From Candidatus Thorarchaeota archaeon (lineage in GTDB: Archaea > Asgardarchaeota > Thorarchaeia > Thorarchaeales > Thorarchaeaceae), in the NCBI GenBank assembly GCA_046482545.1, contig JAWOEX010000013.1, positions 52,318 to 116,317 of the forward strand: a stretch of 64,000 bases of DNA. Reading direction: 5' to 3'. The position numbers and the translations under genes were made by a program. Positions 8,630 to 35,078 of this stretch are shown here, one piece after another. Under the pieces are notes generated by a model, which did no database searches, was not told where the DNA came from, and saw only the letters and a program-made list of their open reading frames with translations. Each line of letters begins with the position of its first letter. Position 1 is the first letter of the stretch.

Positions 8630-9898
8630 ATGAGATTTGAAGGAAACAAAACCCACCGCGGCAGCTATTCCCCTTTTGATAGACTGGCAGAGAGGTATGA
8701 TGACTGGTTTGAAGACGATGGACGCTTAATCTTCTCTACTGAAGTGAAGGCCTTCTACACCCTGCTTCCAATGTTGCCTGAACCATGGCTCGAAATAGGC
8801 GTTGGCAGTGGACGTTTCGCTAAGGCATTAGGAATTAGACTCGGTATTGATCCTTCCGGAAAATTGCTGGAAATGGCGAAACAAAGAGGAATAGATGTCA
8901 TACTTGCGCGGGGCGAGGATGGGGTATTCAGGAATGAAACTTTAGGTACAGTGTTTATGATTGTTACTATCTGTTTTCTAGATAACCTGTTTCTTACAGT
9001 TGTAGCAACTGCATGAAACTTCTGTGTTCCACCCCTCCCCTGCCAGCGTCGCCGCTCCCAAGGCTACCCAGTGGCTCCTTGAGTCAGCAGGGGCTTTGTC
9101 CGCGTTCACCGGAATAGGATTCCTCCCGCGGTCCTGGCTTCTTTCTCCTGTCGTTGTCCCGGGTCATCACTCCGGCGACAGCGAGGTCTTCCACAGTCTT
9201 TGCCACGGCGTGGTCATGATCACCCACCTCAGCTTTGTCACCGCCGCTGAGGAGGTCCATTACGGACAAGGTGAACAGCCGCGGACTCTCCGGAACCTGA
9301 TGGGTTTCCTTTGGTGGAGAGTGAGGACTTCTGCTTAGTGGAACGAGTCCACCTCACAGCCTTCGGGGCTGAGCGCTTCTCCCGTTGGGGAGTGGCTCAC
9401 CGCCCTAGTCCTACTAGACCGGACTCTCGTACCAGGCCTAATAAACTCCCCTCCAAGGCTACAATAGTGCTTGCAGGAAATGTTACAGTTATTTTACACT
9501 TTTCCACTCGCATTTTTTTAGGATTTTGTAAGATTTCTATCCCTCTAGACTCCCCTATGAAGGTTCTACAGGAGGCTAATCGCATCCTCTCCCCAGGAGG
9601 TAGGCTTGTCCTTGGGCTGGTCTTACGAGAAAGCCCATGGGGCAAATACTATCGAGAAAAGAAGGCGGATGGACACCCTTTCTATGATTATGCCACCTTT
9701 TCCACTATCAATGATATCACAACTTTGCTTCAAGAAACGGGGTTTATTATTGAGAAGACTGTATCAACACTTTTCCAAAAGCCAGGGAATGTCAAGCATA
9801 CGGAAGAGCCCCGCGAAGGGTATTCACCAAAGGCGGGTTTCACCGTTCTCGTTGCAGCAAAGCGGGATAATGATGCTCCTGACGGGAAAGAAGAATAA
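8630..9898 (+). pseudogene. class I SAM-dependent methyltransferase split by an inserted element (8630-8982 + 9550-9898)
   Basis: LEIGVGSGRF motif; removing 8983-9549 restores ...VTICFLD-SPMKVLQEANRILSPGG... in frame. Confidence 0.9.
8983..9543 (-). mobile_element. non-autonomous TnpB/omegaRNA-derived element, copy 1 (full length, 561 bp)
   Basis: Roughly 85% identical by eye to 63600-64000; flanked by TCTAGA at 8977-8982 and 9544-9549; interrupts the methyltransferase. Confidence 0.93.
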
Positions 9899-10200
9899 GG
9901 CCCCGCAGAGTGATAGTAATGCTTACCCACAAGAAGGCTTGCGTTGAACCTCAGCAGCTATCTGGGGCCAAAACCAACTTTTGCTAGTAGAAGGGATTGC
10001 AGTGCTTATTGGTTTCCGAATTGGAAGACTAGTTTCTCGTGATACAGAATCTAAATGAGTGGAAGTGGGACTTTCAGTGCCGTTATAGGTTTAGGATCAA
10101 TAACATTGCTGAAAGATTTCTTTGCATTGCTTTCACCAATTCACGTGAAGTCAGAACAACATCTCAGAACTATCCACCGCAACTTAGTATTCGTTGGTTC

Positions 10201-10974
10201 TTACCCGTTTATTTTGCCGGAGAGAAGCTTTTCCAACTCCGTTCTCAAGAGGGTCCGGGTGGCTTCCAAGCTCCAGTCTTCAGTCAAGGCTTGCTGTAAT
10301 ATTCTTCTTCTCGTTATGTGAATACGCTCATCAAATCCAAGATCAGGATTGTTTTCTAAGAACTCAGAAACTACTCTCCTTGTTGTCACATCAAGTTGGT
10401 CGTTGTTTTCATCTGTGACATGTCGGGGTTCTTTCTCAACTTCCAAGTCCTCCAGTTTCCTCAGAATTTCAATGGCCCCTTCCGAAGCAGCAGTGCTGCT
10501 TAAATCAATGGTTACCAACGGTTCATCCCATGCGTATTTCTTCCCTGGGAGGTCCAACCTTTCATCAATTCGCCGGATGACATGTTCTGGGATTACGAAC
10601 TCCCGTGCCCTGTTCCATTTCAAGGCTGTTTCAAGAGGAGTGCTTACAAAAACAGATTCATAGATACAATCGTGCTTGAGGGCGATATCGCGGATCTCGT
10701 GTCTCATGCTTGCATAGTAGTTTGTATCATCGTGCACAACTGACAGTTGCTTCTCAGCTATTGCATTGGCTTTTCTCAGTGCTTTCTTCCGCACCTCGTT
10801 TTCTTTGTTCGGCGTGAAATCTGCATAGAATACATCATCTCGCCAATCGTCTGTACTGATAATCTGTACATTTGATGGCAATGGATGATGGTGTTTGATT
10901 TGCTTGGCCAGGGTAGTCTTTCCAGAGGCGGGTATACCACAGAGTGCGATAAGAAATTGCTTCATGTTACCCAC
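10201..10974 (-). CDS. pstk: O-phosphoseryl-tRNA(Sec) kinase (PSTK/KTI12 family)
   Basis: GIPASGKTT P-loop, DDTNYYASMR, P.KKYAWDEP; Sec-cluster context. Confidence 0.88.
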   Translation of the reverse strand: MGNMKQFLIALCGIPASGKTTLAKQIKHHHPLPSNVQIISTDDWRDDVFYADFTPNKENEVRKKALRKANAIAEKQLSVVHDDTNYYASMRHEIRDIALKHDCIYESVFVSTPLETALKWNRAREFVIPEHVIRRIDERLDLPGKKYAWDEPLVTIDLSSTAASEGAIEILRKLEDLEVEKEPRHVTDENNDQLDVTTRRVVSEFLENNPDLGFDERIHITRRRILQQALTEDWSLEATRTLLRTELEKLLSGKING

Positions 10975-11042
10975 TATCGACTACTTCACTTACGGACTAC
11001 AGCATCATCTTATGGCCGTTTCTTTTGATGCTGAGTTAATGG

Positions 11043-11987
11043 CTATCGCCGAATGCGAATATTCAGGTCTTGTGCCAGTTCCTTGTATCTATTGCGGACT
11101 GTAACCTCAGTTACATTGGATGCTTTGGCAATCTCTCTCTGAGTTCGCCGGTCATCCTCAATAATACCGGCAATGTACAACGAAGCGGCTGCAATACCTC
11201 CTGGGTCTTTGCCTGCGGTTATCCCCTTCTTCTTGGCTGCATTGATAATCTTGGTAGCTGTTTGCACTGTCTTGCCGCTCATTTCCAAGTCTGATGAAAT
11301 CCGTGGCATCAAATCGTTAGCCGAGGGTATGGGGATATGAACATCGACATGTCTGATGATAAGTCGAACACAATGGGCCAGGGATTTCCTGTTAACCCTT
11401 GCTTCGCTGACCATCTCATCCAACTGTCGTGGGATTTTATGGATTCGGCAAGACAAGTATATAGCAGCAGATACCATTCCTTCAATACTTCTTCCCCTAA
11501 CAAGACGCTTATTCAAGGCTTTTCTATAGATTAGGGCTGCAGTCTCCTTCGTTTCCCGTGGGATACCTAGCTGGGAACAAAGCCTATCCATCTCACTCAT
11601 AGCAAGACTCAGATTACGGTGCTGAGAACTATGAGCTAGTGTGCGGATCTGCCATTTACGCATTCTGTAAATTGCAGCTCGCCTACTGCCTTTGATTGAC
11701 CGTCCATTAGCGTCCCGGTTGCCCCAACTTATAGTGGTCGCGAGTCCCTTATCAGCCATCGTGAGACTCATTGGAGACCCTGTTCGAGCTCGTGCGTTTC
11801 GCTCTTCTGCTGTGAAAGCTCGCCATTCTGGGCCTGTGTCCATTATATGCTCGGAAAGTACACAGCCGCAGTTGGTACAGATACTCTCACCGCGCTTAGA
11901 ATCTTCATAGAAATCGTGGCCACCACAGTTTGAGCAGACCTTTTGTTTTTCATCGCCTTTCTTCATACTGTGTGCTGGTTTATGCAT
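11043..11987 (-). CDS. tfb: transcription initiation factor IIB
   Basis: Zn ribbon CSNC...CTNCG, GPEWRAF, two cyclin repeats, VTEVTVRNRYKEL. Confidence 0.97.
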   Translation of the reverse strand: MHKPAHSMKKGDEKQKVCSNCGGHDFYEDSKRGESICTNCGCVLSEHIMDTGPEWRAFTAEERNARARTGSPMSLTMADKGLATTISWGNRDANGRSIKGSRRAAIYRMRKWQIRTLAHSSQHRNLSLAMSEMDRLCSQLGIPRETKETAALIYRKALNKRLVRGRSIEGMVSAAIYLSCRIHKIPRQLDEMVSEARVNRKSLAHCVRLIIRHVDVHIPIPSANDLMPRISSDLEMSGKTVQTATKIINAAKKKGITAGKDPGGIAAASLYIAGIIEDDRRTQREIAKASNVTEVTVRNRYKELAQDLNIRIRR

Positions 11988-34197: not shown

Positions 34198-34311
34198 AGG
34201 AGACCTAGTGCATCAATTGAAATAAGAGTTCTTGCAGCTTGCTGTTGTTTTTTGAAAGACAAAATGCGATTGATAAGAGTTTACTGGACTGTGCCGTGGT
34301 GGTTGTATGGG

Positions 34312-34660
34312 GACTTCCTCACACACATGCCGCAGCTTGAACAGAGATCTTCGACTATGGTCGGTAGCTCACCTCATCTGTATGGACCTTCTCAGTAGCG
34401 ACGAGAAGGCTGGGTTCGGTGATCATGACCACGCCGTGACAAGAGCGGCGGAACAGCTCGCTGTCACTGGAGTGATGACCCGGAGCACGACAGGAGCAGG
34501 AAGTCTGGACCGCGGGAGGAATCCTATTCCAGTGAACGCGGACAAAGCCGCTGCTAACTCAAACGCTGAGAAGTACTTTGAGGGGATTAACGCCAGTAGA
34601 GAAGGAGTGGAACACAAGAATTTCCTCGGTTGAATTCACTCAACTGTAAGAAACAGTTTA
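34312..34660 (+). mobile_element. 5'-truncated omegaRNA-derived element, copy 5
   Basis: GGTGATCATGACCACGCCGTG...GGACCGCGGGAGGAATCCTATTCC...CAACTGTAAGAAACAGTTTA; flanked by TATGGG at 34306-34311 and 34661-34666. Confidence 0.9.
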
Positions 34661-34661
34661 T

Positions 34662-35078
34662 ATGGGAAAACATTATCAACACACATTTCCCCTCCCTAAA
34701 CCCGGGGAGTTAAATGCTATGAGAAGAACAGAGAATCCACAAACAATTGGAGAAATCATTAAGAAACTGCTTCAAAGTGACTTTTCTGAAACTGAAGTAA
34801 AACATTGCAGAGATACCATTGATAGAGCGTGGTATCTTTGCGAGGAACGGAATGGCGGCTACCATCCGACAGCACAGGAGTTGTACGGATTGTTGAATTT
34901 CTTGAATGAGAGAATTATTCCCGCCATTAGGAGCCAATCTCATGACAATGAATCTGCACGTAAATGGCTTGAACAATATGTTGAGAATAACCTTGGAGCG
35001 GATACTTCAGGGTACATCATTGAGCGTAGGCAATTCTCAGAGCCTTCCGTAGATATGAATGCAATCCGAACGATGTAG
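34662..35078 (+). CDS. hypothetical protein
   Basis: 138-aa ORF; its RBS (GGTGG near 34298) is displaced by the element. Confidence 0.65.
   Translation: MGKHYQHTFPLPKPGELNAMRRTENPQTIGEIIKKLLQSDFSETEVKHCRDTIDRAWYLCEERNGGYHPTAQELYGLLNFLNERIIPAIRSQSHDNESARKWLEQYVENNLGADTSGYIIERRQFSEPSVDMNAIRTM

Follow-up and report, generated by a model that had tools for sequence, protein, structure and literature searches.

A 6-nt inherited core flanks short copies of an aCas1-TnpB transposon in a Thorarchaeota genome

The 64,000-nt stretch of DNA analysed here (the window) belongs to contig C34 of genome G000, a Candidatus Thorarchaeota assembly of 3.05 Mb that is 98.9% complete, and its proteins match proteins of Thorarchaeota metagenome-assembled genomes (MAGs). 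It carries several short copies of a mobile element that retains a decayed tail of the nuclease gene tnpB. Two of them, copies 1 and 4, lie in host genes between matching hexamers, which we call cores:

9544..9549, minus strand: left core of copy 1, TCTAGA.
9537..9543, minus strand: variable left segment of copy 1, GGGATAG, element-borne; common to copy C9_327152 and similar in copies of genome G001.
8983..9536, minus strand: body of copy 1, with a left-end core bearing TGTAA repeats, a decayed tnpB tail, an omegaRNA scaffold and a right end finishing in AACAGGTTA.
8977..8982, minus strand: right core of copy 1, TCTAGA, native host sequence within the split methyltransferase gene.
31269..31281, plus strand: left core of copy 4, TCAAGA, and variable segment GTACGCG.
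31282..31828, plus strand: body of copy 4, with terminal GGGTTA.
31829..31834, plus strand: right core of copy 4, TCAAGA, native host sequence in the 3′ end of pfkB.

An earlier reading of these letters (the original prediction) described the flanking repeats as copies of a TnpB guide, perfect in the seed and mismatched distally, left by RNA-guided integration with renewal of the guide. The strings it quoted are found where it had placed them, and the 6-nt repeat is exact at copies 1 and 4. Removing the element together with one hexamer restores the methyltransferase (copy 1) and the PfkB tail (copy 4), and empty alleles in two congeneric genomes, one of them 95.5% alike, hold a single copy of the site rather than both and continue into the right flank. 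The right-hand repeat is therefore native host sequence, as had been proposed. Target sites read R-A-W/TCNNGA (the slash precedes the core).

How far the repeat extends can be read from 38 paired copies in the host genome, or from 54 pairs (31 with a perfect core) once two relatives are added. Across the 38 pairs, left-right identity at positions 3-4 is 0.78 against 0.35 in shuffled controls (z 7.8); it is 0.30 against 0.28 at positions 7-13 (p 0.23) and 0.30 against 0.29 at positions 14-22, and a gapped comparison of positions 7-20 gives p 0.16. The 31 perfect-core pairs show an excess at positions 8-10 (0.39 against 0.26 in a genomic null, p 0.005; shuffle p 0.05), three runs of at least 4 nt beyond the core (4-5 bases; 0.18 expected, p 0.0008) and three cases of at least 7 of 12 matches at positions 7-18 (0.6 expected, p=0.02), with positions 11-13 and 14-20 at chance and no signal past 11. 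The TCNNGA repeat is strong over 6 nt and weak as far as position ~10, after which identity is no better than chance. What survives of the seed-perfect, distally mismatched pattern is a real 6-nt core with a short tail in a minority of copies; a ~20-nt guide relic is ruled out by the position profile, the gapped test and a search for exact relics. Copy 4 does show the 13/18 identity claimed for it, and is among the three best of the perfect-core pairs. At copy 1 only the exact hexamer holds: positions 7-18 give just 2/12 ungapped matches, and the longer match needs a 3-nt gap and falls in left-end sequence, GATAGAAAT, that is common to other copies. The repeats reported for two further copies do not hold up, copy 3 being an eroded relic at a locus where both relatives have ~2.8 kb of other DNA, and copy 5 having no left end, so that the string taken for its left relic aligns to the element interior.

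The same profile bears on the simpler alternative that had been offered alongside, a target-site duplication either of 5-6 bp or of ~20 bp and aged by decay after insertion. The short version stays as a rival and is weighed below. For the long version, the intact autonomous copy on contig C20 has a 12-bp repeat and another copy 8 bp. Decay would be uniform, yet identity falls sharply after base 6; sister copies 94-95% alike share their left segment and have unrelated right flanks, and the second copy is absent at the 95.5% alike empty site. The position profile refutes an aged ~20-bp duplication, to which we give next to no credence.

Copy 1 has 99 BLAST matches in the host genome, where profile searches found 54 left ends and 80 right ends. 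A full short copy, of which there are tens per genome, is ~560 bp long and comprises a left end, the decayed tnpB tail, the omegaRNA scaffold and a right end closing with TGTAAGAAACAGGTTA. The same ends bound two elements of 8.2-8.3 kb in which tnpB lies head-to-head with a giant gene (1410 or 1655 aa), accompanied by short open reading frames (ORFs) only; these elements contain no PolB gene and no match to a Y1, serine or DDE transposase. The giant gene stands beside four of five intact tnpB genes, always head-to-head, and C-terminal remnants of it adjoin orphan left ends. Its protein family occurs in 26/36 genomes of the host family and 0/24 outside it among the genomes searched, and the named homologues are Thorarchaeota and Lokiarchaeota MAG proteins. 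Both a GTTCACTCA motif downstream of tnpB and the flanking repeats are present.

The giant protein has no match in Pfam, in a PDB sequence search or in the ESM Atlas, and its assignment comes from folding only. In a predicted model of residues 8-560 (mean predicted local distance difference test, pLDDT, 81.8), the top 12 structural matches of the first 235 residues are all Cas1 or casposase, the best Cas1 match having Z 13.2, a root-mean-square deviation (rmsd) of 3.6 and 178 aligned residues (Foldseek E 7.7e-4), and casposase 6opm giving Z 10.3, rmsd 4.0 and 190 aligned. Matches to Cas4/RecB-like nucleases follow (Z ~6), and the next part matches Rad51/RadA/KaiC (E 9e-5) at fold level only. 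The protein is thus predicted to fold as a Cas1 catalytic domain, a Cas4-like nuclease and a RecA-like domain; past about residue 850 there is no assignment, this region not having been searched alone. Because of these folds, we take the loci to be aCas1-TnpB loci as named by Altae-Tran et al. 2023 (PMC10691335), whose passages on them treat aCas1 as a likely transposase, mention the GTTCACTCA motif as well as flanking repeats, and do not settle the ends or the target rule. Our literature search returned no paper pairing TnpB with Thorarchaeota, and aCas1-TnpB was discussed in PMC10691335 alone. The short copies are non-autonomous derivatives of an 8-kb Thorarchaeota aCas1-TnpB transposon, and aCas1 would act as the mobiliser that moves them in trans. 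aCas1 has reportedly been traced to Makarova et al. 2020. Contigs from RNA runs cover the aCas1 gene, although these may be DNA. By the features tested, the family is of the aCas1-TnpB kind and is not IS200/IS605, IS607 or a classical casposon. The IS200/IS605 or IS607 identity first suggested gives way to a Cas1-fold mobiliser, and with it falls the expectation that no duplication is made, because casposases, whose integrase is of the Cas1 type, do make duplications (PMC9939771).

Copies are mosaic and the whole-element tree is poorly resolved, so relatedness was judged from left-end cores. The central bases of a copy's TCNNGA core equal those of its nearest left-end relative in 0.44 of cases against 0.13 by chance (p<1e-4), and across species in 12/20 against 5.2 expected (p 3e-4), with 32 cores in the same orientation as the relative's and 4 reverse-complemented. 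Host bases upstream of the core are not inherited along left-end lineages. The 7-8 nt after the left core are also element-borne, and the element moves together with its left terminal 13-14 nt: three species have an ATAGGC/GTAGGC segment in full-length copies that are mostly 83-95% alike and sit at unrelated sites. Among 64 pairs of left ends at least 88% alike, the variable segment is nearly identical in 39, whereas 20 look random, with 2-4/7 matches, where decay would predict 0.8 such pairs; turnover is fastest at the first base of the segment. The variable segment undergoes episodic block replacement, or gene conversion, and we did not find the source of new blocks. Renewal, in other words, does occur as an occasional block replacement, but not at every hop.

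The core itself can switch, on both sides together (C22, TCGAGA; C37, TCTCGA; C12, TCTAGA), and it does not follow the protein closely. Within aCas1 pairs of 81% and 89% identity the cores differ (TCAGGA/TCCCGA and TCTGGA/TCCAGG), and aCas1 proteins only 27% identical share one. A left/right asymmetry among mismatched pairs (15 vs 1, p 5e-4) was considered as proof of a donor core and dropped, the tested cases being composite or rearranged: the true C22 pair is TCGAGA/TCGAGA, the nested C20 pair is not contiguous, the C14 and C23 right flanks are not adjacent in the relatives' loci compared, and the C42 site is too diverged.

Further aCas1-TnpB elements occupy tRNA-Gly 3′ ends; the tRNA to their right is intact, and to their left lies a partial copy of 30-47 nt. 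In four genomes this left copy is identical over 47, 44, 42 and 32 nt to the allele of another genome, and matches the local tRNA for just 11, 11, 19 and 10 nt. Because the intact tRNAs have self-consistent, matched anticodon stems, the partial copy is not a displaced half of the host tRNA, and the comparison of alleles supports its being the sequence of a previous host. These loci display, in a different subfamily, the seed-perfect, distally mismatched and donor-carried pattern that had been proposed for the window. Carriage of the left copy from the donor accordingly stands for the terminal 13-14 nt and for the foreign tRNA-Gly relics, and not for a guide of ~20 nt. The subfamily at tRNA-Gly(TCC) 3′ ends includes G000 C23:124228 (L003:10229) and L084-L087, in tandem in L084 and with two tnpB genes in L085, and has a variable stretch of 18-35 nt between GTTCACTC and the tRNA.

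Integrase att sites end near the tRNA anticodon loop, and so do these relics, as would be expected if the core were exchanged by a separate host recombinase, or by a Y1 transposase in trans, with aCas1 as mere cargo. A single Y1 gene does exist elsewhere in the genome, yet it lies outside any element. The 98.9% complete host genome has no serine recombinase (PF00239) match, in a search that recovered 12/14 controls, and no tyrosine recombinase (PF00589) match with 14/14 controls, which may be assembly loss. Remnants of aCas1 beside orphan left ends and the self-consistent anticodon stems also speak against such exchange, which we consider improbable. Zero PF00589 matches is in itself unusual for an archaeon.

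Could the target instead be chosen by TnpB and its RNA? The tnpB copy in the window lies at the contig end:

62137..62210, plus strand: tnpB leader unit, with a hairpin, ACGGGTTAG and a short guide slot; the upstream promoter target is unrecognisable in this copy.
62221..63858, plus strand: tnpB, 545 aa, with RuvC-I D243 and RuvC-III D438; the RuvC-II Glu is replaced by Gly, with E404 as an alternative; no aCas1 gene adjoins.
63600..64000, plus strand: omegaRNA/right-end region of this tnpB copy, truncated by the contig end.

Such a rearrangement of the RuvC-II glutamate is read as active in PMC10691335. Leader units lie ~130 nt before tnpB at loci L001-L004, L078-L080, L083-L087 and others, as well as in the window. 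In 20 elements the leader ends ACAGGT(T/C)(A/G)G, and the next 9-17 nt repeat exactly a piece of the TATA region upstream in that element (mean 12.5 nt within an element against 4.2 nt across elements), where the match is preceded by TT(A/C)AT. The GAGTGAAC part of the leader can pair with the arm and loop of the omegaRNA hairpin, its own pairing beating shuffled versions (p 0.014). By sequence, the unit looks like crRNA-style autorepression. Taken as guide and target, the leader match would give a target-adjacent motif (TAM) of TT(A/C)AT and a right-end guide starting at about the second base of the core.

Under RNA guidance, the TnpB-omegaRNA complex would pick a target by imperfect guide pairing, aCas1 would integrate there, and the old guide would be left behind at each hop. 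Several features fit: tnpB and aCas1 are head-to-head in most loci examined, the core sits at the guide seed, core and variable segment (13-14 nt) approximate the mean length of the leader match, the tRNA loci hold foreign relics, and one right flank matches a lineage's left segment at 12/13 positions. The putative TAM, however, occurs at 1/63 insertion sites in one register and 0/63 in the other, and T is never found at -3. Targets do not match the guide past the seed with an adjacent motif, the TAM used here being deduced rather than measured; identity is gone past position ~10, and TAM-flanked chromosomal targets for right-end guides amount to two 10-nt matches. The right flanks of related copies are unalike at positions 7-20, and an exact 13-nt left relic comes after none of the right ends. 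Compared with the left segments as a set, right flanks score no higher than genomic sites (p 0.135), and the left segment persists across species. Where positions 8-10 match in addition, they match the left segment that the element carries rather than the guide of a parent copy. Site choice by TnpB is disfavoured because the TAM is absent from the sites, related right flanks are unalike and the 8-10 matches are to carried sequence; RNA-guided integration is likewise unsupported because there is no 20-nt guide copy, no TAM at the sites and no relation between the guides of sister copies. TnpB and its RNA are probably not the targeting module, and we regard the RNA-guided account as very unlikely.

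On balance, our best reading, which we hold to be slightly more likely than not, is homology-assisted integration by aCas1 using carried DNA. An excised donor, perhaps a circle, would consist of the right end, the 6-nt core, the 7-8 nt variable segment and the left end. aCas1 would insert it at R-A-W/TCNNGA sites with a core that agrees, in the same orientation, with the carried one, opening donor and target with the same 6-nt stagger, so that the matching cores anneal; this is probably a staggered exchange of strands, the carried ones pairing with the target, and longer matches to the carried segment (up to ~10-11 nt) would be favoured. A core would then flank the element on either side, and no true gap-filled duplication would be made. 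In rare cases a mismatched or displaced exchange would switch the core or replace the variable segment, and the targeting sequence would be renewed episodically rather than per hop. The RecA-like and Cas4-like domains of the model would fit roles in homology pairing and end processing.

Much of the same evidence is accounted for if a casposase-like aCas1 simply makes a 6-bp target-site duplication and every left-end lineage has an aCas1 variant that moves it and prefers a certain hexamer: perfect cores in 31/54 pairs, one core in empty sites, and lineage switches on both sides (C22, C37, C12). Casposases duplicate their targets and integrate at tRNA 3′ ends (PMC9939771), and the left end here, TAAC..TCTTACA, has an imperfect 16-nt inverted likeness to the right end. 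Yet such duplication would need many protein specificities altering just two central bases, set against cores that differ between aCas1 proteins 81-89% identical and coincide between proteins 27% identical, and it leaves the 8-10 tail, the block turnover and the foreign tRNA relics unexplained. We consider it unlikely, if still a serious competitor.

Several points weigh against homology-assisted integration. Known Cas1 integrases make gap-filled duplications (PMC9939771). Left-core calling is biased to the consensus, and pairs are not independent. No clean mismatched pair shows one side keeping a donor core, the cases being composite, rearranged or uninformative, and gene conversion among mosaic copies could mimic block turnover. 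The P-loop of the RecA-like domain is degenerate. Of the four genomes with foreign tRNA-Gly alleles, G036 alone has genes between the copies; G063, G069 and G073 have no aCas1 or tnpB gene there, and among these three the right-end motif is present in G073 only, G063 and G069 being assigned by position. Finally, four runs of assembled contigs contained no circle or empty junction for the C20 element, a weak negative given that contigs drop rare forms.

A bolder reading, possible but doubtful in our view, makes aCas1 a single-protein nucleic-acid-programmed integrase: the Cas4-like domain would expose a carried flank of 6-45 nt, the RecA-like domain would find its match and the Cas1 domain would join the strands, with the carried sequence re-acquired from former targets, so that the element rewrites its own address. 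An RNA-guided version would be only a small and quite improbable part of this.

The loci resemble the Cas1H-Asgard-1/2 loci in the portion of PMC10691335 that describes them, in the Asgard host, the Cas1-fold gene with tnpB, the flanking repeats and GTTCACTCA after a variable stretch. Beyond that description lie the exact ends, the RAW/TCNNGA target, the inherited core and the tens of short copies per genome; the variable stretch placed there before GTTCACTCA corresponds here to a hairpin arm, and comparison of leaders places the guide beyond the right end. With casposons (PMC9939771) the family shares a Cas1-fold integrase, tRNA 3′ targets (in the sister group) and tandem insertion, and possibly imperfect inverted ends. 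Unlike casposons, the 8-kb elements lack PolB and carry TnpB, their Cas1, which aligns over the helical catalytic part only, forms one protein with Cas4-like and RecA-like domains, and the inherited repeat is 6 nt against a 15-bp target copy. The coupling sequences and att cores of Tn916 (PMC5812530) are likewise short carried sequences exchanged with the target and renewed through heteroduplexes, but the Tn916 Int is a homology-independent tyrosine recombinase, whereas a matching core is almost always present here and no enzyme of that type was found. As in IS200/IS605 and IS607 elements, the omegaRNA overlaps the tnpB 3′ end and the right end, the flank occupies the guide slot, and non-autonomous derivatives occur; unlike them, these elements contain no Y1 or serine TnpA and have a repeated variable core, in place of the fixed IS200/IS605 target motif that equals the TAM without a repeated core. 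Empty sites here lack the putative TAM, so that the usual cutting of empty sites by TnpB looks unavailable. IS110 bridge-RNA recombinases and CRISPR-associated transposons (CASTs) offer the analogy behind the original prediction, target choice set by nucleic acid with a matched core; no bridge-RNA transposase or TnsABC is present here, and nothing indicates that RNA sets the target.

The published accounts we found describe neither the exact ends nor the non-autonomous family, and the target rule and the switchable core, which is inherited, are likewise new relative to them. aCas1 has so far only been predicted to be a transposase; with dozens of copies whose ends are exact, and with empty alleles and a target rule, that prediction becomes testable, for instance with a 560-bp mini-donor. 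If true, inheritance of a switchable core would be a way for Cas1 to choose targets that the literature found does not describe for CRISPR Cas1 or casposases, and would yield a DNA-programmable integrase. The findings also bear on the role of TnpB in elements whose empty sites lack its TAM.

The remaining copies in the window are as follows:

13790..14110, minus strand: copy 2, a relic of a right end; left end not found.
25593..25750, minus strand: copy 3, eroded relic with a right end and a degenerate left-end-like motif at ~25737-25748; no clean insertion.
34300..34660, plus strand: copy 5, left-truncated relic; 34306-34328 is eroded element interior.
41726..42284, minus strand: copy 6, old and full-length, with left core TCAGGA and right CAATGA; outside the range of the original prediction.
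58823..58883, plus strand: copy 7, a short relic of a right end.

Adjoining copy 3, window positions 25340-25590 are non-coding and 88% conserved in two relatives (genes ~77%); this candidate structured RNA has no Rfam match even at E 1, one chance match aside. A tRNA-Sec lies at window 8502-8588, 40 bp upstream of the methyltransferase gene that copy 1 interrupts, and an AbiEi/AbiEii type IV toxin-antitoxin pair (window 60192-62011) lies directly upstream of the tnpB without aCas1. Contigs C34 and C28 of G000 end at the same base inside a right end, with their last 60 nt identical, which suggests near-identical young tnpB copies that broke the assembly.

Elsewhere in G000, several right ends have an extra TA before the core (GGTTA-TA-TCNNGA; C10:30873, C10:14858, C20:117700, C30:8805 and others). 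At C20:181878-181898 (L077), two back-to-back left ends have one hexamer between them, one copy having inserted into the left core of another in the opposite direction. The element at C22:202865-204528 (L069) is a 1.66-kb composite with matching TCGAGA cores, in which ~1 kb of DNA has been captured and another left end lies inside. In other aCas1-TnpB subfamilies (L004:924-962; L064:14631-14682), the ACAGGTTG end is followed by other hexamers, GTGCAT and GACGTC.

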